DNA of 64,000 nucleotides from Podarcis pityusensis (Eukaryota): assembly GCA_964106645.2 (NCBI GenBank), contig OZ067039.1; one strand, given 5' to 3'. Shown here piece by piece: positions 5,034 to 58,071 of the stretch. Numbering within the stretch: position 1 is the stretch's first letter; each line of letters opens with the position of its first letter. The notes under the pieces are model-generated. The model was given only the letters and a program-made list of their open reading frames with translations, ran no database searches and was not told the DNA's origin. Made by a program: the position numbers and the translations under genes.

Positions 5034-5253
5034 ATGTCTACTCTGAAGCTAGTCTCACTGAGTTCAGTGAGGCCTAGGTCACCTCAAGGCCAGCCCTATT
5101 TTACAGGAGGGATTTTATCACATACCAGAAATTTAGGTTTCTGCATTTAAAGTGGTTTAAAGCACTCTGGAACAAATCTACCTTTTTTAAATTAAAAAAA
5201 AATGGACTTTTTGCTGTTAAGAAAGTGGTGGGGAAGTTCATTTTTTAAATGCG

Positions 5254-5366
5254 TGGGATAATGAAAAGGGACAAGAATTCATATCAACACCCTGCAAGCA
5301 AATCAGGATGAGAGCTCATTGTCGTCTAACCTGCCCACAGGGAAATCAGAACAAACACCCAATAAA
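5254..5366 (+). repeat. Copy of dispersed bipartite-motif element (two motif units)
   Basis: caagcaaatcag-gatgag-agctcattgtc (5295-5323) and cagggaaatcag-aacaaa-cacccaataaa (5338-5366). Upstream tgggataatga aligns with 28208-28218. Confidence 0.6.
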
Positions 5367-6317
5367 AAGCAGACACTGTGTAGCCTCCAGCAGCTACATG
5401 TTTGCCATCACCGAATGTGTGATGTGGCCATTGTGGAATTGTGGCAGGAACATGAGGATCATTTGATCTAATTGTCTGCTCAAAAGCAGTGGGGTCAACT
5501 CTGAACAGAAGTGATGGAAAGGTGCCATGCCAGAACTGTTTGTTGGACAACAAATGTGTTTAGCAAAACAAATCCAGATGGCTTGCGTAAGTAACCAGTG
5601 CCACAGGCTACAGAGAAGTATGGAGAAAGCATGATTGCCATCCAGTATGAACTGTGAGGAAGGGGATGTCTTTCTGACTTTAAATTTGTTGGCATCCGTC
5701 TGTCTCAGGAGACAATGGAGGACTGTTCCTTTGGGGGTGAAGTCAAGCTGTTAGAAGGTTGCAGTGCCTGCTGTGGCTGTAGAGACCGATGCAGGAGAGA
5801 CATGTTTTGTTGCACCTGTGGCAGATGAACCTGCATGCGCTGATGCAGATGCACCATGGTATTTCTTCTCTCTGTGTTCCTACCTGCTCTGGTCACTGCT
5901 ATGGACCCACGGCCATTGGCTGCTCACACAGAGGGGCAGGGCAGGCAGGCAGATAAACCTGAAGAACAGGACTCAGAGAAGGAAGGGCCTAGAAGAGAAG
6001 CACTGAGGAAGAAGAGGTCCAGATGAATGAGGTTGAGATAAAAACTCAGGGCTGTAAACCACGAGGGAAGCACAGAACAGCTCCCCTCTACAGACATGCT
6101 GCTTCTCAGTCTATGAATATTAGCGGGATGCCCTGCTTCCTCCCCCAACTTTATTAGGGCTAAATATATCACAAGTTGGGCAAAGGTTCACCCCATGCAC
6201 AGAGACAGAAAATTTCTAAAGATGGAACGGGAAGCCCTAGAGTTTTAGATTGATCTCCCTCTCTCCTACTAACTGAACTCTTTTATCTCCTCCTCTCTCC
6301 CCTGCCCCCTTTTACCA

Positions 6318-12078: not shown

Positions 12079-12174
12079 GGACTGCTCCAGATGACTTATT
12101 TATTGAGCAGTCAACCTGATTTGCTTGTACACAGTATCCATTCTTTATTGAGCATCTGTTCTGATTTGTTTGTA
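12079..12174 (-). repeat. Copy of dispersed bipartite-motif element (two motif units)
   Basis: tttattgagca-gtcaac-ctgatttgcttg (12099) and tttattgagca-tctgtt-ctgatttgtttg (12144), with terminus ggactgctccagatgac. Confidence 0.7.
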
Positions 12175-12209
12175 GGAAGATCCTTCAACAATGCAAGAAC
12201 CACAGCTAA

Positions 12210-12527
12210 AGAATCCCTGGTGGGTGGCCATCCAGCTACTGTATAAAAGCCTCCAAAGAAGGAGAGTCCACCACCTTCTGAGGGAGTCCATTTCATTATC
12301 AAAAAGCTCTTACAGCCAGAAAGTTCTTCCTAATGTTTAGTCAGAATCTCCTTTCTTGTCAGTTGAATCCATTGGTTCAGGTCCTACACTCTGGAGCAAC
12401 AGAAAACAAGCTTGCTTCATCATCTGGGTGAAAGTCCTTCAGATATTTGAAGATGGCTATCATATTACTTCTCACTCTTTTCTTCTCCAGACTAAACATA
12501 TCCAACTCCCTCAACCATTCCTCATAT
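12210..12527 (-). mobile_element. CR1 LINE 3' ORF2 fragment
   Basis: YEEWLRELDMFSLEKKRVRSNMIAIFKYLK is the characteristic CR1 C-terminal motif. Confidence 0.9.
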
Positions 12528-12575
12528 AAATTAGTGAACAATAATAATCCTACACTTATCAATATATTTCCTCAC

Positions 12576-15970: not shown

Positions 15971-16316
15971 GAGACGCGGGTGGCGCTGTGGGTTAAACCA
16001 CAGAGCCTAGAACTTGCTGATCAGAAGGTTGGCGGTTCGAATCCCCATGACAGGGTTAGCTCCTGTTATTCGGTCCCTGCTCCTGCCAACCTAGCAGTTC
16101 GAAAGCACGTCAAAGTGCAAGTAGATAAATAGGTACCGCTTTGGTGGTAAACGGCGTTTCCGTGCGCTGCTCTGGTTCGCCAGAAGTGGCTTAGTCATGC
16201 TGGTCACATGACCCGGAAGCTGTACGGTGGCTCCCTCGGCCAATAAAGCGAGATGAGCGCCGCAACCCCAGAGTCGGCTACGACTGGACCTAATGGTCAG
16301 GGGTCCCTTTTACCTT
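15971..16316 (+). mobile_element. Sauria SINE (Squam1), full length
   Basis: GAGACGCGGGTGGCGCTGTGGGTTAAACC head, GGTTCGAATCC B-box, ACCTTT tail, and a 13-bp TSD tactctagtctaa (15958-15970, 16317-16329). Confidence 0.95.
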
Positions 16317-17162
16317 TACTCTAGTCTAAACCAAAGTGTGAAAAGAGCATTTTGAAGCTAAGTGAAACTCAATCTCACTCTCTCATCCCTCTCTAAATGA
16401 GGTGTGAATTGATCCTCAGTAATAGGTATCCAAGAAAAAACTGGGTGCCTGAGCACTTTGGGTCCTCCTGGACCACGGAGGCAGAGCTAGAAGGGCTGTT
16501 TTTTTGATGGCGGGGGGGTAGGTTGTTTGCCTTGCTATCTATCCTTCATGAAGGAAAAAGTTTCAGGACAATTTTGTAAGGGAGATTTAAGAGCAATTTC
16601 CACATGCACACCGGGAGACAACAAACAGGTGGCAGAATTATTTTGCCATTCAAAATAGCACGAACTTCCTGTTCCTTATCAACAGAAGCCTTTTTTCACA
16701 CAGTTGAAAATCATCATGTAGAATTTGTCTGTGGAGGAAAAGCAGAGGGTTAATGTTATCAGTGTCAGGCTCTTATGAGTCCTCTATCAGAAGAACCCCT
16801 GGAGAGTCTCTAGACCTGCACCTCCTACTCCTGGCTCTCATTCCCTGCGCTCAGAGAAGAATGGGTAGGAGGAGAAGGAGCTGCTCCTCACTTCTCCCTC
16901 TGGAAAGATGTCCAGAGTAGAGTTGGAGGAAGGCAGCAAGTGAATGGACAGCATCATGGAGCCCAATCCCAAGAGGGAGGGGGGCATTGAGAACATTGGA
17001 GAAGTGATCCACATCTAAAGCACACCCAATGCACTTTTAAAACACATGGCTCCCCCTCTGCTCCAAGAATCTCCCAAGAACTCATAACAAACTACAATTC
17101 CCAGGATACTTTCGGGGAAGCCATGTGCTTTAAATGTGTGCTGGATGTGCTTCAATATGTAT

Positions 17163-17683: not shown

Positions 17684-17865
17684 GTATGGTGTGGATTGGC
17701 ACCTGGTCACCTCCAGGCTGTCAGTATTTTGTAAGAGGGATTCAAGCACATGCAAGAAATTTAGGTTTGCACAATGTGTTTTGTTGACCTAGGGCAACAG
17801 ATTCGCTTTAAAAACAAAGCAGGCTTCTTGAGTTTTGTGTGGGATGGGCGAATGATTAATGGGAA

Positions 17866-17981
17866 GATGTACCAACAAAAACAAATGCTCAATAAAGAAT
17901 GGGCATGCCGTGACCTCCGTGTAAGCTTCGTGCAAGGAAATCAGAGCGAATCCTCAATGAACAGGTTGTCTGGAGAAGCCC
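17866..17981 (+). repeat. Copy of dispersed bipartite-motif element
   Basis: tgctcaataaa at 17886 and caaggaaatcag-agcgaa-tcctcaatgaa (17933-17961), 65 bp apart as at 28268/28333. Ends caggttgtctggagaagccc. Confidence 0.7.
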
Positions 17982-18336
17982 CTTGTCCACCAACACCCTG
18001 CCCCCAAACATGGCACCAAAGAGTGGGGTCATGCCTTCTGCTCCAATTTCAGAGTCCCCCCAAAACACATAGAAAGTGTGCAGTTATTTATTTTAGTTAA
18101 TAAAACTTACAGGCCATTTGATTGTAATTGAAACCTCTAAGCACCTTACAAAAAATAAACGAAACAGACCTCCAGATTGTCATTAAAAGACGTTAAAAAC
18201 AGGTATTTTGAAGACAAACAAAATATGATTAAACCAACAGGCAAGCTGGAAACAGAATAAAAGGCATCTCAACATCTACATGTATCTGGATAGGCTTGTC
18301 TGAAAGAAAATGCTTTTAGCCGGTACCAAAAAGGTA

Positions 18337-18584
18337 CCGTATTTTTCGCTCTATAAGACGCACCAGACCACAAGACGCACCTAGTTTTTGGAGGAGGAAA
18401 ACAAAACAAAAAAATATTCTGAATCTCAGAAGCCAGAACAGCAAGAGGGATTGCTGCGCAGCAACTCTTCCTGTTCTGGCTTCTCGGATAGCTGCACAGC
18501 CTACATTTGCTCCATAAGACGCACACACATTTCCCCTTACTTTTTAGGAGGGAAAAAGTGAGTCTTATAGAGCAAAAAATACGG
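18337..18584. mobile_element. Tc1/mariner-pogo MITE inserted in an old minus-strand L2-like fragment
   Basis: TIR CCGTATTTTTCGCTCTATAAGAC...GTCTTATAGAGCAAAAAATACGG with TA on both sides. Confidence 0.9.
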
Positions 18585-21076
18585 TACCTACCTGACGTCA
18601 ATAGGGAGGAAGTTCCAAAGTGTGGGTGCTGCAGCTCTATTAAAAAAAAAAATCAATTTCTTACAAGTGCAGAACGAATATTATGTAGCACCAGCGCCAG
18701 TTCTGCAAATCGAAGCAGTCGAGTGGGCATATATGGAGAAAGGCATATAAAGGCTATATGGATGGACATTCTGTCCATGGAAAGATTCTGCACACAGAAA
18801 GAGCTGGTGATTCCCCACGGAGAGAGCAAGTGCTATCCCTTCTCCTCTCCACAGCCTTCTGCCAAAAAGGGCTGCAGTGCTTCTAACAATGTATTCCGGA
18901 GGAAAGCTACTCACCAGTCTGCAATGCATTATGCTTCCCTTTCTTTCGGATGCAAATGCCCATGCCCACATACACCATGCTTGGCACTGTCCATCTCAAA
19001 CTAAAAGCCTCTTTCACTAGATGGGTGAGCAGCAGGTATGCAGCTGGGCACTTAGTTCTTGACCTGTGCAGTGAGGGTTGCACCCATCTCATTTTGCATC
19101 GGCGCTGCTCTGCAATATGGAGAGTTCTTTAATCACAGGTCTGGGAAAAAGAGAGGCGTTTTTTGAAGAAAAGGGCATTGGTGTGCACGTGGAAGGAACT
19201 TTGATGAGGGAGATCTTCTGCAGAACATGGGAAGCAGCAGGAGGAAGGTGTGGGCCTGTTTAGGAAAAGAAAAGGGAGGCCCAGCTATGCAGCAATCATT
19301 ACTGGGTAATGGTCAGTGTGGACATGTTTGCCACAGAGTTGAAAGCAATAAACAGCAGGGCACAATCGGAGCCTTAGTTCTTGGGCTCCAATCCTACTGT
19401 GAAAGAACCCTTATTCATCTGTGACAGAAGGAATGTGTGCTAATTGCAACTGGGCGAACCGCTCCACCTTTTAATGCTGGCCATGGGGACAGTGGTGTTT
19501 ATAAGCCTCCAGGAACAATGAGCTGGTTTAAGCCCAAAGGGTCTGTTTTCTACAAATACCCCCAACAATTGTTTGATTCCTTTCTTCCCCCTTGGAGTGG
19601 GGGCGGAGGGAATTTAGAAAAACTGTAGATCCATTCAAACTCTGGCTGCCTGGAAGCAGCAGTCCGAGAATAGACTATGTGGGCAGCAGTGGAGGCCTTT
19701 CGGATTTGAAAGCTAAAACATTCTTGCATTTGAAATCCTGCCTGAGCTCTTTTTTATTTTAAGGTATTATTTTTTATGGGTTAAGGCTTTGATCGTCCTT
19801 TCAAAGGGGGGGGGGAGAGAACCCATCATCACAACCATCAAAAGCTCACACCAGCATTGCATCCAATACAAACCGAGAAGTAACATGAAGAGGAGGCCAC
19901 ATAACAAAAAGTACTGTAATGCAACATGGTGCTTGGAGGCAGGGAACCGCGCAGGAGGCGGCTGCTTGTAATGAAGAAAGGAAACAGGGCCTGTGGGCTG
20001 ACTTGGGCAGTTTATGGTATGGCAAGCCAGGAGGGCCAATGCACTATACTAACGTCCAGTGATAATGGGCAGAGCTGGCCCAAGACATTCTACCGCCTGA
20101 AGCGAAAGGCAAGATTGCAGTCAAACCATCCCAACACTAGCAGTCGTCTCCTACACCTGAAGGCAGCAAGATAGCTTGGAGGGGACAAGGAAGGCCATGT
20201 GGCCCACTCAGCTGCTCCCTGCCTGAGGCAACTGCATTGCTCTACCTCAAGGGTGGGGAACCTCAGGCCCATTGCTAGGCCAAATGAAGTCCTCTAGGTC
20301 TCCCTGGCTGGCCCTCGGGACCATTGCTCGGCCATTTCCTCCCCCACTCAGGCCACACACCAGGCCACCCCTCTCACTGGCCCTGCTCTGTGACCTCAAG
20401 TGCTTTTGGCTTCATGGTATGTGGCCTTGAACTAGGAGAACACCCATTTCTTGCCTTCATGGAAGATGGAGGCGTACAGGTAAATGTGGATACATGTGCA
20501 GAAACTTCTGTAACATTGCCTTGCCCACTTTTCTCTTTGGCCCCACCCACAATCGGCATGTTCTCTGTGATGAAATGCAATCCTTGGATTGAAGAAGCCG
20601 TCCCACCCTGTCCCTCCCTAATGATAGGGCTGGTCCTGACAAGGCATTATGGCCATCTTTGATGGACGTTGGCATTGACCTTAAATTAATAGAAACGACT
20701 ATGGCAAAAATATTGCAGAAATTGCACTGCCTAGACCAGCTTCTTTCTTTGCAATTTATCTTGAGTAGCTTATTTTACAACTGAAGAAAAAGAATGCAGA
20801 ATGTGTCTTGAGTATGAGGAGGCCTGATGAGTGGCTGCGAAATGCACACTCCAGCAGTACAGGGGGAGAAAGGGCTGCCGGAGTGTGGTTGGAAGAAGAA
20901 AAAGAAACAAACTGATAAGGAGAAAGTGTTGGAAAATCCAGCAAACATGTGAATTGTTTGCACTTGAGGGAAATGAATTCGGCAAAGCTCAGACTTGAAA
21001 GAGGAGTTTTGAACAATGGAGTTCAATGTTGTCACACGACACAAAACATTTACTTTCCAAGCGCCAGGTGACAGTT

Positions 21077-27440: not shown

Positions 27441-28052
27441 ATGATGTGATCGTGCAAGTTGCCTGTCTCTTCTGCCCTGAGATCTTTGGGGAAAGGGCAG
27501 GGTAAAATGGTGGTGAAACAAAGAATGGGTTGGATTCCACGTTGCTCTCAAGGAGAGGGGGATTTCCACCTGCTCTTCCCTCTGTCTTCCATACCCTACA
27601 CAGATGGAAAAATGGAAAGGGGAGGCAGGAAAGCCTCACAAATGAATATAAGCTCTGCTGCATTCATAAGCAGTAAGTTATGGTGGGACAAAGGCATCCC
27701 TACCAGTGTTCCCAATCCACCATTCAACCCCTATTCAGCAGATAGGGCCAGTTCAGTTTTGGACAGATCCTTCAGCATCTCACACACACACACCATGAAG
27801 AATTGGTGAACCCAGATCCTCTCTTTTATCCTGCCCCCAACTCCACTGCCTTCTATTGGCAGATAAATGGGTGGGTGGAACCTCTCCATAAACAGCGGGG
27901 CTAGGGAGACAAGGAGGTTGTGGTGGCAGTGCCATGGACCAAGGAGGAATGGCACCAGCAAGGAGGCAGTGCTGGGCTGTTGGCAGTAGCTCAGCTATGT
28001 CACTTGGTACTGTGAGGCCTATCAGTAGGATGTCCGAAGGCAACTAAAGGTT

Positions 28053-28364
28053 GGGCTATTCCAGACGGTTGCAGTTTTCACGTGGAATTCTGGCAAATTC
28101 AGGTTGCACAATTTAAAAAAAGTTGATTTGGAGTTCTTGCATGACAAACCAGTTTGTTTCCCCATCTTGAAATTGGACTTTTGCAATAAGCAAAATGATA
28201 GCGAAAATGGGATAACGATTGCTCGACACAATGCCATCTAATTTCCCAGCAAACAAATCCTGATGAATGCTCAATAAATCGCTGCCATTGTCTAACCTCC
28301 CTGCAAACCTTGTGCCAACAAATCAGGATGAATGCTCAATAAAACAGGTCATCTGGAAGTGACC
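28053..28364 (+). mobile_element. Best-preserved copy of bipartite-motif element; candidate old TIR MITE
   Basis: Motif units at 28250-28278 and 28315-28343. The end gtcatctggaagtgacc is an imperfect inverted match to gggctattccagacg at 28053. Confidence 0.55.
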
Positions 28365-28887
28365 ATCATCAGGATGGCTGGAGCTGATGGGAACTGCAAT
28401 CCAACAACATTTGGAGGGCAGCAGATTAGCAAAGCCTGCGCTGGGGTTCAACATGAGCTCTTTGTCAAGAATTGCTATGCCATATGAGGTAGAGAAGCAG
28501 TCCCAGGAAGCTTTTATGCCTCTTCCTTTGTGAAACAGCCAAAAGACATGAATATACCACAGACTAAGCTTGCATGATATACAGTACTGGGTTTCCTCAA
28601 GCCTCCTGGCAAAGTAATGTGGGCAGCCAAGCATCTCATCCAGAAAGTCAAATGTGAACACATAATTGTTCTTCGTCTGCAGCAAACACTGGAGACAGAT
28701 CAGAGAGAGCGTCCTCGGGTGTTGTCATTAGAACCAGCATCACATTAGAACCTGCATAAATCTAGGTTAGGTTATGGTATAAAATAGCACGAAAGGATAG
28801 TGGAGGTAACCTTGGCTGGCGCCTTCATGACAGATCTTTAAGTGGCAGGTGACAGCATTCCTCTTTTCCCAGGCCCTTGGCTAATTA

Positions 28888-33763: not shown

Positions 33764-34006
33764 TAGGGCTGCCACATGTCCAGTTTTCCCCAGACGACTG
33801 GGATTTCAAAGGTGGAATTGACGTCGGGGGGGGGGGGATTCTGATCTTAGGCAAGTTAATTGAAAATTTGCGGGGTTTTGGCTCAAAACCAAAAACTTTG
33901 GGGCTTGTTTAAAACTTGTTGCTCAACAATTTTGGAGTCTTCCTAAAAAAAGTTCAACAGCTTTCAGGGTGTCCTGGTTTTTACTTTTTGAAATATGGCA
34001 GCCCTA
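33764..34006. mobile_element. hAT MITE
   Basis: TIR TAGGGCTGCCA...TGGCAGCCCTA and a perfect 8-bp TSD cacatgat (33756-33763, 34007-34014). Confidence 0.92.
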
Positions 34007-36463: not shown

Positions 36464-36829
36464 GGTAAAAGGTAAAGGTAAATGAGCCCTGGATGGTTAA
36501 ATCCAGTCAAAGGCGACTATGGGGTTGTGGCGCTCATCTCGCTTTCAGGCTGAAGGAGCCGGCGTTTGTTCACAGACAGCTTTCTGGGTCATATGGCCAG
36601 CATGACTAAACCGCTTCAGGCGCAATGGAACACTGTGACAGAAGCCAGAGTGCATGGAAACGCTGTTTATCTTCCTGCCCCAGTGGTACCTATTTATGGT
36701 GTGCTAGGCTGGCAGAAGCTGGGACAGAGCAACAGTTAGCTCACCCCATCGTGCACATTCGAACTGCCAACCTTCTGATCCGCAAGCCCAAGAGGTCCAG
36801 TGGTTTAGACCACAGCGCCACCCGCTCCC
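36464..36829 (-). mobile_element. Sauria SINE (more diverged subfamily)
   Basis: Minus-strand head GGGAGCGGGTGGCGCTGTGGTCTAAACC, ACCTTT tail, and TSD ttgtagtaatgg(c/t)a (36450-36463, 36830-36843). Confidence 0.92.
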
Positions 36830-42764: not shown

Positions 42765-43112
42765 GGGACGCGGGTGGCGCTGTGGGTTAAACCACAGAGC
42801 CTAGGACTTGCTGATCAGAAGGCCGGTGGTTCAAATCCCCGTGATGGGGTGAGCTCCCATTGTTCGGTCCCTGTTCCTGCCAACCTAGCAGTTCGAAAGC
42901 ACCTCAAAGTGCAAGTAGATAAATAGGTGCCGCTCTGGCGGGAATGTAAATGGCGTTTCTGTGCGCTGCTCTGGTTCACCAGAAGCGGCTTAGTCATGCT
43001 GGCCACATGACCCGGAAGCTGTACGCCGGCTCCCTCGGCCAATAAAGCAAGATGAGCGCCGCAACCACAGAGTCGGCCACGACTGGACCTAATGTTCAGG
43101 GGTCCCTTTACC
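42765..43112 (+). mobile_element. Sauria SINE, full length, inserted in an old minus-strand L2 fragment
   Basis: GGGACGCGGGTGGCGCTGTGGGTTAAACC head and a 14-bp TSD taaaagcagtcctc (42751-42764, 43113-43126). Confidence 0.95.
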
Positions 43113-45606
43113 TAAAAGCAGTCCTCAGCATACAGCACATTGCAATAATACAATTGGCACATTACCAAAGCGCATGTAACTGGCTGGACTGGGTGTCCCT
43201 AGGGAAGGGCGCAAATGCCATACCAAACACAGCTGGAGAAAAGGCACCCCTAGCCACCATTTTTGTCTCTTGAGCATGCAGGAGGTGCTCCAATTTACAA
43301 GGAACAATTGTGCTGATGGCAACATCTGGGGGGAAAACCCATCTCACTCGTTTTGTACCCAATCGATCACTGTGCTCTGCAGGTGAAGGCCCCCTGCAGA
43401 GGACCTTCTTATCAGGAGGTTTGTTCTGCTTGCTATAGGAATCAGGCATTCGGGGTGTGTACATACTGTCATGGCACCTACTCTTTGGAATTCTCTCCCA
43501 CTAAATATCAGGCAGCAGCCATCTGTGTTGTCTTTTTGACAACCCTAGGCTAACTTTCAGGTTGAGCATTTGGGAAAGCCACCCCGGTTGCAGCGGGAAG
43601 CAATGCCAGTTTGCCAGGCCATATGACATGTGATTCATAGCATCTACAGGTTCCGTTCCAGTTCTGGCCACTCTCACATTGCTGCAGCGCTGGTAAGGGA
43701 GACTGTCCATGCAGCCCCTCTGAATGGATGGTAATCTGGATGCATCAAAGCGTGACCTTAAGAAATGCAACAAACCAGGCTCAGGAAACAACAACAACAA
43801 CAACAACAAATCATTTAAAAAAGAAACCAGAAACACTCACATATCTTATGGGGGTTATTATTTATAATATTAAAAAATGAAGCAAATAACTAGTCTGATT
43901 TATCTCACCCGTCCCTTCACACATGCATGTGCTAAAGTAGAATAAGCTCAACTTTGAATTTATGTAAGATTTGCAGCTTCGTTCAATTGGTTTAACCGCT
44001 CTGTGGCTTCTGCCTTAATCTTATCAAAGGTCATTTGGTCGCAGAGATACCTCTTTCAGTATCTCTTTCGTCTAAGGAGAGAAAGTACTTAGCCAGGCTG
44101 ACTCTTTAGCCAGGGGATTTCTAAAGTGAGCATGTTCTAGAAACAACCTTGGAGCCAATCCAGGGAGAGGCTGTCTAGAGGCCTTGGTGGAAAATCCAGG
44201 CAAGCAGCCTCTCAGGCTCAGCTGCCTATCTTTCTGGTCACAGGAGTTACCAGGTGCTGCGTTTCAGTGGGGCAACCTCCCTGGAAAGAAAGCCCCATCA
44301 CACAGCTATGCACAACAGGGAGAGGGGATGCTGGAAGCTTTAGGGCAGTCATAAGAAAGTACTTCATGAAGTACTATGGAATTTGCTCTCACCAGAGGCA
44401 GCAATGGCCACCGATTCACAGCTCCTGATTCCCAGCTCACCCTTGACAGTCAGGAGGACTTTGGTGTGAGGAAGGATTCAGGCTTGGAACCCCCCACCTG
44501 AAGTCCCAGCTTGTATAGTCCCTGGAACTCTGTGCCACATGATTTATCTCTCTATGTGTTGATCACATAGATTAGAACGTCTCTGTTATGGATGGACAAC
44601 CCGGTGCCGTAGGATTGCACAGATGAAGCGCCATGATACAGCAGCGTAAAGAAATGCATCATGTATTCTTGCCTTTACCCGTCTGACATTGCAGAAGGTC
44701 ACACTTCGAAGGGAGCTCTGCATGGTCTGCATTAGCCGGTGCTAACCTCTTAAGCCTCAGTTTCGCCCTCCCGCTTGCCACAGTGCCGAATTTTGATTGC
44801 ATCGTTATAAGCACAGCGAGGAACCTTCTTCATTGCATGGTCTCCTGCAGCGCCACTGCTGAAGCTCCAGAGAGGAGGGCTTCCCACTGACTTTATTCCA
44901 GCACGAGGGGCTGTCAGCTGCCGGCAGCCAGGTTACAAACACACACCGCCATGTGGTAGAGTATGAGACCAGCACATTTCACCCAAGGATTTTCACAAGG
45001 AAACAAGTGGTGTGCATGTTCTCCCTGATATTGGTCTCTCCTAATCCTGACTTTCTCCAAACACTTCTTGTCTTACATTTTGGGACTCTCCAGAAGCAGA
45101 GTTGGGGTTTTTTTTTGGGGGGGGGATCTACAACAGCTGACTGGAGATAGAAAAGCTCTGGGAAATCCCTGTGAATTCCTTTGTAACACTCATACTAGTC
45201 CCTTTCTGTAAAATGGTAGCATAACAAGAGACTGGTTGATGTGAAAACAGATAACCCCGTTAATTTATTACAGTCAAATGCAAAGAGAATAAAAGGGTCT
45301 TGTAACCAAACCCGTCTATGGGTTGTGCTGGGTGGGTGGATTGGGCAGAGGGGCACCTTCGCTGGCATGGAGCTCCTCTACTGTGCACTGCTATGTTGCA
45401 GCCAGCAACACCCATACCCAAAAGTCAGACTTTCCAGGCTGATGCAGTGATCTCCCAGTCCCGCCTCTACCTCCTACTTGGACTAGTGTGCTTGGCAGGG
45501 TTGCAGATGCAGCGATGACCCCGCCATCTTATTAAGCCCCACCAGGCGGCAGCTGGGGTTAGGATTGCGCCCAAACAGATTTACTGTGACGTATGCTTGT
45601 GTGAGA

Positions 45607-45969
45607 GGGACGCGGGTGGCGCTGTGGGTAAAACCTCAGTGCCTAGGACTTGCTGATCGTAAGGTTGGCGGTTCGAATCCCCGCGGCGGGGTGAGCTCCC
45701 GTCATTCGGTCCCAGCTCCTGCCCACCTAGCAGTTTGAAAGCACCCCTAAGTGCAAGTAGATAAATAGGTGCCGCTTTATAGCGGGAAGGTAAACGGCAT
45801 TTTCGTGTGCTGCGCTGGTGCTGGCTCACCAGAGCAGCTTCGTCACGCTGGCCACGTGACCCGGAAGTGTCTGCGGACAGCGCTGGCTCCCGGCCTCTTA
45901 AGTGAGATGAGCGCACAACCCTATAATCGGACACGACTGGCCCGCACGGGCAGGGGTACCTTTACCTTT
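45607..45969 (+). mobile_element. Sauria SINE, distinct subfamily
   Basis: Same head but a different 3' half (GGCACGGGCAGGGGTACCTTTACCTTT-like end). TSD tatgcttgtgtg (45592-45603, 45970-45981). Confidence 0.93.
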
Positions 45970-48570
45970 TATGCTTGTGTGGACTGGATCCCAGGTCCTC
46001 GGGTGCATGAACTGTTGGCCTCAGTTGACAGATGCACTTATAATCATATATGGATGTAGACAATGGAGTCAAAGGGTGATGAAATGAAAGGATCGCAAGC
46101 CCGTTTGGGACTGCCTAATCCCCTGTGCAGTTAGAAGAACATGAGGGAGAAAGTAGATTTGTATGCTAGCTCTGCTCCCCGCCCCCCCAAATCACTCTCC
46201 TCTTGTGCTGCTTACCTCTCCAAGTTATAATGGGATGTCAACTGTACACCTGTAAAAATGGTTTGATTGCTTTTAGCGTCTGCGTAAGTGGTCTGATTGT
46301 TTTTAGAGGTTGTATTCTGGTTGCATTGTATCTCGTTGTGCACCACTTTGATGGGCTCAGGCTCAGAAGCGTTGTATTGATCTGTAAGAAAGAGGGATGG
46401 AATGAAAAAACAAAGGGGGAGCCTTCTCTACATCTATAAGCTTCTAAAGTTCCAAAGTGTGCAGGGAGCTTACATGAGTAAAAATAACTATGTTCTGCCT
46501 CCCCAGTTGGAGGCATTATGACTCTTAATCCCAGTTCCTGGGATGGACAAAGGGAGAGAACACCGCTGCGCTCAGCTCCTGCCTGAAGTTTTCCCAGAGA
46601 CATCTGGTTGGCCACTGTAAGAACAGGATCCCGGAATAGATGGGGCACTAGCCAGATCCAGCAGGGTTCTTCTTATGTTCTTAGAAGATAGCCCCCCAAC
46701 TCATGGAGAGTCACGGGTGGGGGTGAAATGGGTTGGTGAAAGGGATGGATCAAGTGTTCTCTCATCTCCATTCCCCCTGTGTGATGAGCCTAAATAGGAC
46801 AGACGCCTGTGACATTTGTAGGGAAAGCTCAGATGTATGCAAAATAAGCAAGCACACACTTCAAGGACTCCATGCAGAAACAGTGTGCGTTGTTCTCTTG
46901 ATCATGAGGAAAAAGCAGATATGATTCAGCTGAATTACAAGAGGCGGAGACTTGTGGGGGGGGGGGACAAAAGCAAAGCTCAGCAATGGAATTTTACAAA
47001 CTTTCTTTGCATCGCTGCGAACTTGTCGGGATGAGTATGCAGAATAACCTCATCACTGCTGTTTTGGCAAAAACACAAGCAAATCAGGTAGCGGCATGTC
47101 AGGCTTGGCTGTAGCTTTCCCTGTTTACCTGGCAACAATATGAACCGTCAGTCCAATGCAGTTTTGCTACACACGCAAGACAAAAGTAAAATAAAAGAAT
47201 TCACTTGGAACTATTACACTGCTAGTCTTTTCCCTTGTTTGCAGTAAGTAGTTTCAACTCTAGCTAAGTTCCCTTATTGCTGTTTTCTTTGGGGGGTTTT
47301 ATGCTTGATTTAATGGCAATTTGTTTTTACCAAATAAAATACTTTTTGAGATTCACTCAAAACCAGGAGCCGAACCCAAACAGGACTTCTCCCACTTGGT
47401 TCAAGACTACTGGGATATTAATCATTATTAGGGTAGCCAGTAGAAAGCTCCCTGTGTTAAAGGAAATTTCATATCCATTTAGCTGCTGCTTCTTCCTCTT
47501 CCCCTTCTTTTTCTTCACAAGGGGCATGATCCAAACAAAGTTCATGACTTTTAAATCCCATTGATTTCAATGAGAGAAAGCTAAGCACATCCTTACCCCC
47601 CCATTGGAATCAATGACTTAAAACTTGTAATTCTAAACGTAAGCTTTGCATTCTGATTTAAACTTGATTGTGCAGTATGTTTGTTGCTGTTGTCCACACA
47701 GATAGAATACATGTGCGGTAAAGTGTTGGTGGCCACTTTGAATGAGGCCGCAGTGTGAACTCCCCAGAGCTAGGTCTGAATGTGAGAGGCATATTAGTGC
47801 CATTAGATCAGCCTCTCAATCTGTGACAGATAAGCAAAATCATAAAAATAAAAAACATTAGTGAAATAAAATTGGATTTTTAATGGGGGGGGGAATGGTA
47901 GCAGAAGGTGAAATGAACAGATTAGACTATGGTATGGTAGAAATATGGTCCCTGGTGAGCATAACAGGAAAAAGAAAAAGGCACAGAAAGTGTTACTCAC
48001 AATGTAATTTATAGTGTTGTTTTCCAAAACAGATTTGCTTCTGTTTTTTTATATTTAGATGGCTATGCCACAATCTTCAAGTCATCTGATCATGAAGCAT
48101 AGTCAAAAGGAATAAGAGGAACATTAAGTTCCTGTTTATCTTTTAGGAAATGCTTATATCTTCAGAACTATTACAGTACAATGCAGGGTAAAAATGATCA
48201 CTGGAACGAGCACCACTGTTCTGTTCGCAGGTGGTGAAAGAGAAGGACCAAAGCTCAGTGCTAGTGCAGGTTCAATTGCTGGAGTCTCCAGGTAAGGCTG
48301 GGGACAGCTCCAGCCTAAACCCTAGAGAGCCATTGCCAGTCAGAGCAGATAATACTCAGCTAGGTGGCCCAGGGGTCTGGCTCAGGAATCTCTGTCCTTA
48401 AGAAAGAAGGACACTCCACATCCCAGGCTTGGAGAAAAGGACATCACACTTGCTTCTCACAGAGAGTCAACGTTGCTTGGTCTGTTATTATTTTTCCAAA
48501 AAAAAAATACTTTTTACTGAAAATACAGACAATATAATCTTTCAGAGCTTCTGGGGGAGGAAGAAACATA

Positions 48571-48784
48571 CATTCGTACCTTGGAAGTCAAACGGAATCC
48601 GTTCCGGAAGTGCATTAGACTTTCAAAACGTTCAGAAACCCAAGCACGGCTTCTGATTGGCTGCAGGAAGCTCCTGCAGCCAATCGGAAGCCCCGGAAGC
48701 CCTGTCGGACATTTGGCTTCCAAAAATAGTTCACAAACTGGAATAGTTCGGGAACTCAGCTGTTTGACTTCCAAGGTACGACTG
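48571..48784. mobile_element. Tigger/pogo-like MITE
   Basis: 23-bp TIR CA(T/G)TCGTACCTTGGAAGTCAAAC, TA flanks, and the internal palindrome GATTGGCTGCAGGA...TCCTGCAGCCAATC. Confidence 0.9.
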
Positions 48785-50597
48785 TATTAGAAGCCTGGAC
48801 AACACAGAGAGCATTATGACATTGATTGAAAGGAAACAGCTCCTGCATGTTTTGTTTTGAAACTCATCAAATGTACTGAGTTCATTACAACCACTTTCTT
48901 TGACAATAGGCTGAGGACTCTGTTTCCATCTTGCACATAAGCCTCCAAATCTGTGGCCCCAAAGCACTGGGGACAAATATGCTGTACAGTAGGGAATCAA
49001 GTGGCAAACTAGTCAACGCTGAATATGTACAGCTGATGCTGATGGTTCGGGATAGACTAAGGATTCAGCTCTGCTCAGGACACGGATGAGGAGTCTGCTG
49101 ATTGTGTTGGCCTACAGCTCTCGATATAGCTGGCTGGGGCTAATGGGAACAGGAGTCCAGCAACATCTGGTGACACATCCCTGGCTTAGAAGATTGCCCA
49201 GCCGAGGTATCTGGCTGGTTTCTGACATCCTTCGGAGGTCTGACTGGCTCACTGTGCTTCAACACAATCACCATGTGTGCTGAGGTTACCTCTTCAGGGC
49301 AGACTTATGACTGCTTTTTTTCGCTTATATCCATGACAGTTAAAGATGCATCTCAGCTGCTTACCCCACACTTTATTAATACACTTCGAACTGAGTGTTT
49401 TGGACTGGCCTGAAAACAAGTACCTTGTTAATTCAGTGTGTTGAGAGGACACCATTGTAGCAGTCAGATAATGACCCTCTTTTGCCCCTGGCGTCTCTAT
49501 GTAGCAGTTGCTGGGGTGGATATTACTGTGCTCATGTTGTGTTTGTGGGCTTCCCACAAATAAACTGCTGGATGAAACCGGCCTTTGGTCTGACCCCACA
49601 CAGGGCTCTTCTCATGTTCTTATGAGGGCAAGTGCTTTCTCTTCTCCACTCCACTCTTCAGTTGAAAAGCTCGAAGTGGTTTACAGATGGTTCCAAGGTG
49701 GGTCTCCAACTAGGCAATTTACAGGACCAAACCTGCTTCGCTCAGATTATAAGACGAGACCCTGTGCTGATTGAAGCAATGTGCGTAACTGACAAGCACA
49801 GTCTTGTGACTCATCCCAAGATTTGCAATGCAGAACACTGGTGGTTAGAATGGAATGTGCCAACACCAATATCTAGGACAGCACAGGACCACAAAACATG
49901 CTATTACACTGCTACCAGTTGGCTGGAATTGGATGCTAAGGATTTGCTCTCCAGTTTAATGCAATCACAGCCTTCAGTCTTAATGCATAAGTTTTTGTGC
50001 ACCTGCAGAAATAAGATTGCCAACTTCAGTTTGCCCAATGAAAAGTTCCGAGCATGTGCCTCCACAAACTCATCAAGCCTTCCCTCTGAGGCAAAGGTGA
50101 TGGTTTTGTGTAAGTATGTATGGAAATTGGGCTTCTAAGCATTTGTAGAGCTGTCCTTTCTGAAAAGAAAGTGGCTTCCGTTTGAAACAATGGAAGCAGA
50201 GGGCACAGGGTGCCTCCAGACAGGCTGTTTATTTGGACAAAATCTTTAGTAGTATCCTAGGGTTGCCATATTTCAAAAAGTGAAAATCCGGACACAAGGA
50301 CTTCCGCCTGCACAATAGGAGTTTATCTCCTTCTCCTCTTCCTGCCCCCCAATCTGTCCTGGGGTTTCCTACAACCTTCTGGAGCACATTTGGGGGGGGG
50401 GGTAAATATTTGGGGAGAGGGAGAAGAAGTCCTATGGCACAGGCAGAAGGCTTTGCACAAATAGGACAATTTCATTGGATACACTCCTTGTTTGTTTCTC
50501 CACACTTGCTAGTGCAAACATCCCATCACTTTTCTAACCACAAACAAGTCCGATAAGGATCACCGCACTGGAAAGTGTGGGAAAACATCTACTACCT

Positions 50598-50721
50598 GGC
50601 AATGTCATATGACGCCAGCATTAACATATTAGGAAAATGCAATGTCATATAATCTCTGCACAAGTTTTGTGTGACCATATGAGTATGACTGCTCAATAAA
50701 ACAAACAGTCTGGAAGCTCCC
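50598..50721 (+). repeat. Degenerate copy of dispersed bipartite-motif element
   Basis: catatgag-tatgac-tgctcaataaa (50676-50700) followed by acaaacagtctggaagctccc. The upstream linker resembles 28285-28315. Confidence 0.55.
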
Positions 50722-51182: not shown

Positions 51183-51264
51183 CCAGATGTTGCTGAACTA
51201 CAACTCCCATCACCTCTGACCATTGGCCAAACTTGCTTGGGAGTTGTAGTTCAGCAACATCTGG
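51183..51264. mobile_element. Palindromic MITE core with perfect 27-bp inverted repeat
   Basis: CCAGATGTTGCTGAACTACAACTCCCA / TGGGAGTTGTAGTTCAGCAACATCTGG. Degenerate relatives at ~23200, 24980, 32410 and 38060. Confidence 0.8.
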
Positions 51265-54200: not shown

Positions 54201-55361
54201 GGCCAATGGTGCGGTAAATGGTAGCTGAATGCAGTGTCACAAATTGCTTCAGGATTTGAAAGGTAAAGGGACAGGAAGCATTGGCAAGTCATCCCTCCCC
54301 CACGTAAAATATTATACCTTTTTCATAAATTATGAGTAGGTCCCCTGTTGGGACTGTTTTTCTGTTAGAAACCGTGAGATGAATCATTGTATAAATTCAG
54401 CTCGCTTCTCTGACTATGCCCCTGAATATGGGAGATTTGTGAGTCAGCAAACCATCTGTGTTCTTGTGGAAAGTGGAGAATGGCTTTTTGATATGCTCTG
54501 GCTATAATGGGGTGGAGGACAATGGGTACTAATGGGCAATTGATCCATCACTGAAACATACATAGTGTTGATTGAATCTCATCACTGGGGGTGGGGGGAA
54601 TGGACCCTAAGCTTCCTTAGCTGCAGCAGCTCCAAGGTTAGCATGAACTTAAGTGCTTTCCCAAAGTGATGTTTGTCTTCCTCCTCCTTATTTCAACATC
54701 CATCCTGATAGTGCCACAACACAAACCCTTATTAGCCAATAACTGAATGCACTTGATGCACTCCGTATTGCTTAATTATCTCATGAGTGCTGTGCCCGCT
54801 CTCCTGAAGTTAAAGGGCTGGAAAGTTTTCAGTCATAGTGCCCACCCCTTTGGGCCATTTAGAAAGGATAAACTAAAAAGCAGGCAATATATATAATGCT
54901 GATCACATAATAATTGTGCGCACAGCATTAGGAAGAGCATCAGGCTCTCTATTATTAATGTACATGTCAACTCTCTTGATTACTTTTTGTTTGTTTTGTT
55001 AAGGGCACAGACTTACAGTTACATGTGCAACTCTGTTAGTAATCATTTATGTAGTGCACTGACGGTGCACTTGGGAAGTAAATGTTGTTGAGTTCAATGG
55101 GGCTTCCTCCCAACTCCAGTAAGGGTGAATAAGACTGAAGCCTTTGTGTCAGGAATGGTTAACAATGCTGATTTCAGTAAACCTCCCAAAGAAAAAAATC
55201 CTAAGAGGGAGATCCTTAGCATTCCCATTTTACACACAGAGAAGTGTGGCTGAGTGATGGTGACTTGCCCATGGCTCCCCACACTGAGAGGGGAAGGATC
55301 AGACAGCAGCACTCCTCAAGACGTTGCAGGAAAAGTATGGAATATAACTAACATCATGCAT

Positions 55362-55566
55362 AAAGGTAAAGGGACCCCTGACCGTTAGGTTCAGTTGTGT
55401 ACGACTCTGGGATTGCGACACTCATCTCGCTTTATTGGCCAAGGGAACCGGCGTACAGCTTCCGGGTCATGTGGCCAGCATGACTAAGCCACTTCTGGCT
55501 AACCAGAGCAGCGCATGGAAATGCCGTTTACCTTCCCACCGGAGCGGTACCTATTTATCTACTTGC
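55362..55566 (-). mobile_element. Sauria SINE, 3' half only
   Basis: Reverse complement of the 3' ~200 bp of the copies at 15971 and 42765. Confidence 0.9.
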
Positions 55567-58071
55567 CTTTTGTTACAGGGAGCCTTTTGTTACAGGGAGG
55601 GGCAGAACCTCAGTTTCCTATGTATTTTTATTGATTTTGGGGAGGGCAGCTGCCCCTCCCTGCCCCCCCTTGGTCATGCCCATGTCTGGCTCCAGTGTGC
55701 TCCCATTGCTGGTGTTTGCAGCTGAATACACATGATGTTAGTCACAGTCCATAAGTATATCCTATAATTTCTTGAGAAATGTTCTTCTTTGCTGCGATGC
55801 CCCTCAAACCAGCTTCCATCCGATTTTAAAATGCAAGCCACAGTTTGGCTGCGGTGCATGCAGTTCAGAAAAGCCATTGCACACGCACAAATGGCAGCTT
55901 CACTGAATAGGAGTTCCGGCAGTGGGGATCGCAGGTGCAGGGCAATAAATCAGGTGGTGTGAATCAAGAGGAGACGCTGCCACTTCCTCTCTGGTATGCA
56001 CAGCAATGTACAAAAGCAACTTGAAACACAGCAGGGGGAAATGACCTCACTGTGTTTTAAGCCGCCAGTGCGTACACAGCCTTAGACAAGGAAGGAAAAC
56101 CAACCTTAGTGCTGCAACAAATTGTTTGCTGCTAATGATATAGTGTGGGAGTGTTTTCTTTTCCATTTTCTTTTCGGCAAGAGTTCAAAGTGGAAGCCAA
56201 GAACATGAAAATCAAACTTTGATCTGGAACTGCCCCCTTTGATGTTTTCAAAGCCCTCTCGGGATGATGGTACCCGAAGCAAATCTAGCTGACACAATGA
56301 AGCCAAAGGAAGTTGTTGATTTCGTGATCTGATCTGGGTTCAAACTTGTGCTTTAAGAGCCTTGTGGGGGAAATCATACCAATGTAAAAGGCTCAAGACT
56401 TTAATTGAGGGCTCATTCATCTTTCTGCTTGTCCCATGGCTAGAAAGCATGGGTCCCAATGGTTTTCTGCTTAACCCATGCTGTTCATGTATGGGTCTGA
56501 GTGGTTCACCTCTTGCCCTGCCATTTCCCAGGGAAAATCCACTCTTTAGCTCTGAATTGGAGCAAACATCAAACTAAAGCAACCCCAAATTTCAATTTGC
56601 TCTGCCATTTTCCTGGAGGAAAGCAGCAGGATGCAAGGAAGTGGGGGTGAGTCCTGAACCAAATTGATCAAGGACACGTGTAAACAGGAACAAGCCTTGT
56701 AAATAATCCCAGAAGAGTTACTAGCCCACAACATTCTTCTTCTTCTACTTTTTTTTTCTGGCCTTCTTGGAGGATGATAGGGACGAATGGGGAGATCTGT
56801 GCCTCTTCCAGCACCACAATGTGTTTCTGTGATGGGCACGAAGGAGAAGGCTTTTTTGTTCTGGAAGCCTGCTTGGTTTCTACGCCGGGCACAGAGGAGG
56901 AACAGAGTGCCCCCCCCCCCTCTTCTGCCAGCCTGCTCACTTGCCAGGATCAAATTCAATGCATTCACCTACATGCAGTTCCTTGATGCATTTGGTGACC
57001 AGGTGAGTTCAAGCCTGTCCTTAAACATCCCTGAGCATCCATTGCAATCTCTCTCTGCATATTAAAGAATTCTCTCTGGCACTGACTGCTATAACATAAC
57101 CCAGCACTACTCCCCCCAGCCATAACTTCATTGCTTCTCACAGTAAAAAATGAACGTCCTGGGCAGCGCAGAGGTGTGATTATTTCCTTAATGAGCTCAG
57201 AAAGTGAGCTCATCGGATCACTTCAAAATGGGGTGTTGTTTGTGTGTCTCATAACTCAAAGGGCCTTTAGAGAGGAATGATAACCTGGATCATGCTGTCT
57301 ATAGAAAAACCGCAGGATCTTCCAGTTACGCAGTTATGCTGATGTCCGTAAACGGGCAGCATGATTCCTCAAAAAGTTCTGCTCCATTCATGTCTATGTC
57401 ATGGCGCCAGCGGTGCAGTTTCAAGGTCAGGCTGTCAGCCTGCAGAGCCTCCCTGCGTCTGACTAACACAAATCACTTGCTGATAAGAGAGCATGGCACT
57501 CCGCATAGCTCCCAAGCCATGTAGCAAATTAGAGGCTGGCTCTTTGGCCTCTCCAAAGCAGTGTTGTAAATCTGCACCAGTGCTAATTCAAACCATTGGC
57601 CCATCAAGCTCAGTGTGGTTGACTGACAGCGCTAGTACTTTTACAAATGGCACACAAAGTTCGTTCCGCACTTGTAAGGAATCAGCCTCTCAGCATGACA
57701 ACATCTACTGTACACTGTGGAACTCCCTGCCCATTGATAGGCTCCTATACTATTCTTTCTTATGTCTGTTAAAAACCTTTTTCATTTAGGCAGGCTTACC
57801 CAGACATGTAAAGCTGACCTGCATTTTAATATGCAAATTTTATATAATGGATTTTTTTTGAACTGCTGCTTTCATTTTGTATTTTGAATTTTTGCTTCAG
57901 CCAACTTGTCAACACCTGACTTTGACGAATAATTTAATGTATCTTTTATTTATCAAGTATTTTTATTTATTTTATTTGTTCAATTTGTATGCCACCCTTT
58001 GTGGTGTATAAAAACAAAAACATAATGCACAGCATAATATTAAAATAATCATAAAAACAGCCCCCCACCCA

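Follow-up and report, generated by a model that had tools for sequence, protein, structure and literature searches.

The paired half-sites that recur in this stretch of DNA are one part of a MITE that is dispersed across the genome of Podarcis pityusensis. The window that we analyzed (64,000 nucleotides, at 88.66-88.72 Mb of C2 in a genome of 1.515 Gb) contains five copies, which are independent insertions and come from two subfamilies. Very probably, this is an old non-coding family with 14-bp inverted ends, a target-site duplication (TSD) of 3 bp, and about 25,000 copies, and it was likely moved by a NuwaII-type Harbinger that has since been lost. It is likely to be an ordinary repeat rather than a locally built gene switch.

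The initial annotation reported a bipartite motif, with two half-sites around a 6-bp spacer, at five loci in the window, and it was correct. If up to three mismatches are allowed, then the full pattern occurs at 28250, 28315, 12099 (minus strand), 12144 (minus strand), and 17933, which is 5 matches as compared to 0.01 expected from shuffled sequence. Further half-sites lie at 17886, 5295, 5338, and 50690. The sites at 5.3 kb and 50.7 kb fail the three-mismatch pattern, yet they score as copies of the family with a profile that was built from 29 copies from elsewhere in the genome, with the 28-kb copy left out. A search of the window with the profile found the same five loci, and there were 0 hits in reversed controls. 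The last of these had been placed at 50676: there is a copy at this locus, but the half-site is at 50690, and the left half is degraded. The copies in the window, with the parts of the 28-kb copy, are:

28053..28364, plus strand: whole MITE copy of subfamily A (consensus 323 bp); profile match at 28054-28364, 234 bits, with a model that did not include this copy
28053..28066, plus strand: left terminal inverted repeat (TIR), 14 bp, begins with GG; when compared by eye, it agrees with the right TIR at 10 of 14 letters
28351..28364, minus strand: right TIR; family similarity ends here in 30 aligned loci
28050..28052, plus strand: left target-site triplet, decayed; its partner is 28365-28367, and the middle base alone matches
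28104..28111, no strand: decayed copy of an 8-bp palindrome, of which there are three in the CpG-restored consensus
28231..28284, plus strand: internal repeat unit 1, about 54 bp, contains the motif at 28250-28278
28285..28349, plus strand: internal repeat unit 2, 54 bp lengthened by an 11-bp insert, contains the motif at 28315-28343
5077..5389, plus strand: subfamily B copy with the left TIR present and the right end gone; 169 bits with the B model versus 108 with A
12079..12202, minus strand: right part of a subfamily B copy, with motifs at 12144-12172 and 12099-12127; scores best as B
17705..17981, plus strand: subfamily B copy that has both ends but also internal deletions, half-site at 17886 and motif at 17933; 160 bits with B versus 96 with A
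50564..50719, plus strand: degraded right part of a copy, half-site at 50690; 36 bits, with the A model only

The common 3' end that had been noticed is as described, and it is a TIR with a matching left end. That counterpart was overlooked at first, as were the true length of the repeated unit (about 54 bp, not 29) and the spread of the family across the genome. In an alignment of 30 loci, the similarity stops sharply at the inverted ends. The TIR of the subfamily A consensus is 14 bp, and the element begins with GG and closes with CC. When the 312-bp copy from the window was used as the query, the 40 that were scored of 1,406 first candidates comprised the copy and a further 39, which are 68-88% identical to it and lie on many chromosomes. 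Also, we fetched 60 loci by the TIR pattern alone, and all of the distinct ones (57-58) carry the family. Two exact half-sites at the fixed spacing have 482 matches genome-wide and 0 in the control. The family thus has the features of a MITE: it is short, non-coding, dispersed, and at high copy, with a 14-bp TIR and a 3-bp TSD. Nothing in 1.38 Mb of DNA that we fetched, the MITE copies included, matched a transposase, and a search of Rfam gave 0 matches.

In its right third, the element consists of tandem copies of the ~54-bp unit, which was not among the reports of Tandem Repeats Finder. There are two units in subfamily A and three in subfamily B. Subfamily B was recognized from a tree of 155 copies, in which a clade of 25 is set apart (support 0.95); its consensus is about 375 bp, and its units are spaced 43 and 65 bp apart. 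Subfamily B is the best-scoring model for the copies at 5.1, 12.1, and 17.7 kb, and subfamily A is for the copy at 28 kb. The unit spacings that were reported originally all hold: 65 bp (28250/28315 and 17886/17951), 43 bp (5295/5338, which are units 1 and 2 of the 5.1-kb copy), and 45 bp (12172/12127). The 65-bp spacing arises because the second unit has an 11-bp insert, and at 12.1 kb a deletion of 20 bp has shortened the 65 bp to 45. Because the spacings fit the unit structure, the tandem pairs are the structure of the element and not an independent pairing of sites. If we restore the CpGs in the consensus, then the 8-bp palindrome TTGCGCAA occurs three times, at positions 62, 90, and 270 (the copy in the window is at 28104). 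Most present-day copies of TTGCGCAA have decayed. We take the palindrome to resemble a C/EBP site.

For the TSD, we began with 86 two-ended copies, left out 20 with weak TIRs, and scored the remaining 66. Duplicate loci were removed before counting (L001, L050, L051, L188, L197, and L205; of L163 and L197, which represent one copy, L197 alone was removed). A 3-bp duplication gave the strongest signal of nine lengths, with matches at 105 of 198 letters versus a rate of 0.35 for shuffled sites (z = 6.2). In 29 copies that had not been used before, 55 of 87 letters match (z = 4.8). Only 10 of the 66 copies have exact 3-bp TSDs. The evidence is at the level of the family and is not seen in the 28-kb copy itself. 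Across the 66 copies, lengths of 4-7, 9, and 10 bp gave no signal. The 2-bp length gave z = 2.4 overall and z = 0.5 in the independent set, and the 8-bp length gave a weak z = 2.8 (168 of 528 letters versus 0.27 shuffled), with 0 of 66 exact. The middle base of the triplet is identical on both sides in 35 of 66 copies and complementary in 8 of 66. Identity is thus far commoner than complementarity, so the triplet is duplicated rather than part of an extended TIR.

The preferred target is AC|TNA|GT. Among 197 folded ends, there is T at +1 in 110, A at +3 in 108, G at +4 in 93 (p = 5e-15), and T at +5 in 102. The middle base is A or T in 123 of the 197 ends (62%), which is near the background (p = 0.07), and it is C or G in the other 74, as well as in 8 of 31 pairs whose middle bases match. 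TAA and TTA are the commonest triplets. We also note A at +1 in 57 of the 197 ends and T at +3 in 38, which suggests a minority of ANT-like sites.

These are the features by which NuwaII is defined: a target of C|TNA|G and TIRs of 13-46 bp that begin with GG (PMC4482050). The members given there are 15 families from turtles and three short families from Xenopus (PMC4482050). Our family has all three of the sequence features (i.e., TNA with a free middle base, C and G just outside the TSD, and a 14-bp TIR that begins with GG), and judging from them it is likely a member of NuwaII. Because we did not find a transposase flanked by these TIRs in the loci that we searched, the assignment to a superfamily comes from the ends and the target site alone. 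We rejected several other assignments on the same features. Classical PIF/Harbinger elements have a strict TWA target, which does not fit the 74 ends and 8 matched pairs with C or G in the middle. A hAT element would have an 8-bp duplication and a Tc1/mariner element would duplicate TA, and the results for those lengths are given above. The TIRs of Chapaev3 begin with CAC rather than GG.

It is unlikely, in our judgment, that this is a MITE from some other superfamily whose members duplicate 3 bp and have ends with GG (for instance Zator, or classical PIF/Harbinger of the TWA type). The commonest triplets in our family, TAA and TTA, are also the TSDs of Zator-1 from amphioxus (PMC12905397), and the parent that would settle the superfamily was not found in the loci that we searched. 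However, Zator has TWA instead of TNA, and the TIR of Zator-1 is about 33 bp instead of 14 bp. The free middle base argues against any TWA-type element, and the conserved C and G directly outside the TSD agree with the definition of NuwaII. We give almost no credence to another origin for the motif, as the 3' end of a retroelement (an L2/MIR-like tail or an LTR polyadenylation signal). The right half-site does contain AATAAA, the canonical poly(A) hexamer, and this is presumably why it looks like the 3' end of an L2/MIR or LTR element. But both ends are inverted, the boundary is fixed, there is a 3-bp TSD, and there is no tail; in the copies that we examined, this two-ended structure rules out a retroelement 3' end. 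Also, every distinct locus that was selected by the TIRs carries the same family, and Rfam has no match.

If a NuwaII-type Harbinger did move these MITEs, then a DDE transposase and a Myb/SANT DNA-binding partner would have been supplied in trans, as in other Harbingers. In the Harbingers that have been studied, the transposase acts with a Myb-like protein, which binds DNA at or near the termini (PMC2836001, PMC13668399). The 29-bp block near the right end, which is present two or three times, would fit as an array that was bound by the Myb/SANT protein of the element itself, and the three 8-bp palindromes are perhaps part of this putative array. Once the source elements died, the copies would have decayed roughly neutrally.

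We searched for an autonomous parent. Among the best candidates scored, there were 12 matches to PF13359 and 15 to a turtle transposase. Around 8 Harbinger-like loci (7 open frames and 1 with a stop) and 4 decayed fragments, we found no bracketing pair of TIRs in the surrounding 20 kb, and 14 further loci with half copies had no coding interior. Two facing left TIRs on C8, 4.9 kb apart, seemed to be a candidate parent, but they turned out to belong to separate MITE copies. Some Harbinger-like open reading frames in this genome are up to 53% identical to a turtle protein. Such frames indicate that relatives of the turtle elements were once present in this lineage, but they do not show that the MITE was moved by them. 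Open frames that resemble Harbinger transposases, of up to 584 amino acids and without the family's TIRs, lie on C13 (L142-L145), C2 (L141 and L146), and C12 (L147), and one of these is 94% identical to a protein cluster that is labelled as a snake's. By analogy to Anolis, the intact frames without TIRs are likely domesticated genes.

The initial annotation suggested that the two halves are kept around a free spacer, as in the footprint of a protein. This was true of the six spacers that were seen, but it is not true of the family. The spacer has a consensus, RAYGAA, with a decayed CpG: in 30 loci that were chosen for exact half-sites, its positions are R in 29/30, A in 28/30, Y in 28/30, R in 28/30, A in 25/30, and A in 26/30. 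In 102 alignment rows that were not chosen by the motif, positions 3-4 are the mix of TG, CA, CG, and TA that is left by a decayed CpG. Outside of CpGs, the spacers mismatch the consensus at 63 of 479 letters (0.132) and the half-sites at 400 of 2,668 (0.150), so conservation is no weaker in the spacer than in the halves (p = 0.33). The same comparison within subfamily A gave p = 0.41.

Another part of the footprint idea did hold, as the whole 29-bp block is kept between the subfamilies. The consensus sequences of A and B differ at 1 of 54 non-CpG sites in the 29-bp blocks versus 31 of 196 elsewhere (p = 0.005), given that the block was chosen after the fact and that the motif had served to select 11 of the 26 B copies. 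Without those 11 copies, the consensus of B has one more half-site difference from A. Within subfamily A, the mismatch rate is 0.147 for half-site columns versus 0.19 for the rest (column test, p = 0.02), or 0.140 versus 0.158 if we leave out the poly-C/A tract and the columns with many mismatches (p = 0.22). The motif is the best-kept interior part of the element. The pattern of conservation is better explained by constraint during the mobile life of the element than by constraint after insertion.

The family is old. The median distance to the consensus (K2P) of 61 copies of subfamily A is 0.206, or about 20% divergence, and 70 of 1,165 ancestral CpGs are retained (i.e., 94% have been lost). 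Orthologous copies are present in two related organisms. Among the rows listed for the first of these close relatives, the elements differ at 9 of 427 sites and the flanks at 39 of 1,069 (p = 0.15), which leans slightly toward constraint. Among those for the second, the counts are 4 of 278 and 7 of 705 (p = 0.52). In both comparisons, the contig pieces overlap the borders of the element by 20-40 bp. In contigs from each of the four related runs, the left 60 bp of the element are joined to the right 50 bp (28113 to 28313-28317), which hints at a mini-derivative of about 110 bp. We discarded this candidate, as the exact junction has 0 matches in the genome.

Sixty 10-kb stretches at hand-picked, spread coordinates (600 kb) contain 10 loci, which implies about 25,000 copies genome-wide (95% range, 12,100-46,400). 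The suspected enrichment of copies at this locus is a mixed case: the window itself is richer than expected (5 loci versus 1.06, P = 0.005), but the 200 kb that flank it have 4 loci, which is the background density (p = 0.48), and the window and flanks together give p = 0.09. By chance, about 112 of 23,672 windows of equal size would be as rich. We also saw three copies within 5 kb at another locus (L229, C8 87.09 Mb), so there are local clusters elsewhere too. Two origins were proposed originally. The inverted ends, the sharp boundary, the 3-bp TSD, and the AC|TNA|GT target support the first, an old DNA transposon that has subterminal repeats. A locally multiplied or exapted regulatory module is not supported, given copies on all of the chromosomes seen in our searches, flanks at background density, and a spacer that is conserved as well as the half-sites.

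A MITE could still be put to use by its host, and the copies in the window might have been kept or concentrated as regulatory sites that are bound via the motif. We consider this quite improbable. It would account for the excess of copies in the window, for the motif being the best-kept interior part, and for orthologous copies that are slightly less diverged than their flanks in one species (2.1% versus 3.6%). On the other hand, the flanking DNA has no excess, the copies in the window are truncated or deleted and have mismatches in the motif, and the spacer is conserved as well as the halves. The difference between orthologs and flanks is not significant and is reversed in the other species. 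CpG-depleted DNA also mutates more slowly in any case. A broader scenario, to which we give only a small chance, is that a NuwaII-type lineage expanded in a land squamate and that its Myb/SANT array is still read by a domesticated or host factor, so that some copies, perhaps the cluster in the window, would be regulatory.

We return to the MITE as a likely product of NuwaII and compare it to known systems. Harbinger-2N1A/B/C_XT from Xenopus (402-440 bp) and Harbinger-1 to -5_CPB from the painted turtle belong to NuwaII of PHIS (PIF/Harbinger) (PMC4482050). Our family shares with NuwaII the TNA duplication, the outer C and G, and short TIRs that begin with GG, and its short non-coding form is like that of the Xenopus members. 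It differs in that the target is extended to AC|TNA|GT, and the likeness is one of target site and of TIR length and start. We found no coding parent in the loci that we searched. Table S7 of that paper has no squamate member (PMC4482050). Tourist-like MITEs such as mPing of rice, and Harbinger3_DR of zebrafish, are also non-autonomous, with 3-bp TSDs and a target preference that extends past the TSD (PMC2836001, PMC13668399). They depend on a transposase together with a Myb-like protein, and by analogy the motif here may have a role in binding. Their TSDs are TWA or CWG, and they are active or reconstructed, whereas our family is about 20% diverged.

In squamates, Harbinger-Snek of sea kraits is another large Harbinger expansion with short non-autonomous forms (PMC8437027). 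As compared by description, it is recent, horizontally transferred, and has intact copies, while our family is old and lacks a parent (PMC8437027). That paper states that Harbingers have not been reported from solely terrestrial vertebrates (PMC8437027), and a table elsewhere lists a few Harbinger and Chompy insertions (PMC7561263). Anolis carolinensis also has intact Harbinger-like frames without TIRs, which were read as domesticated genes; the accessible part of this survey has PIF/Harbinger as five domesticated copies only, with no MITE family, and the elements with TWA that it describes belong to Chapaev3 and have CAC at their ends (PMC3014272). Word searches of open-access text, with no comparison to a sequence library, did not find a description of our family, which may already be in Dfam or Repbase, with or without a name. 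Our results suggest that NuwaII-type Harbingers once amplified in a squamate, contrary to the statement in PMC8437027. They also provide a candidate binding site for a Harbinger Myb/SANT protein, but not a new regulatory system. The family is a clearly delimited repeat, which would make up about 0.5% of the genome on our estimate, and it should be of use for masking and for phylogenetic markers.

The window contains other repeats as well. A Pfam search of 199 of its open reading frames (with 150 of 447 short candidates) gave one sub-threshold match, to the Ig-like domain of CFAP74 (E = 0.002), which overlaps repeats. At 18332-18589 there is an element of 258 bp whose inverted ends are 25 bp or longer and agree at 30 of 32 letters, which we take to be a MITE of the Tc1/mariner type, and at 48568-48787 there is a 220-bp element with 26-bp inverted ends, which is presumably Tigger-like. 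A family of about 345 bp has five copies that are 68-90% alike (15973-16318, 42765-43113, 45606-45969, 55361-55572, and 36472-36829), and we believe that it resembles a Sauria SINE. A pair of related ends, at 33969-34006 and 50258-50295, looks hAT-like to us. Where the 12.1-kb MITE copy lacks its left part, there is a sequence at 12260-12530 (minus strand) that we believe resembles the 3' region of a CR1 LINE. Finally, there is an 82-bp palindrome at 51183-51264.
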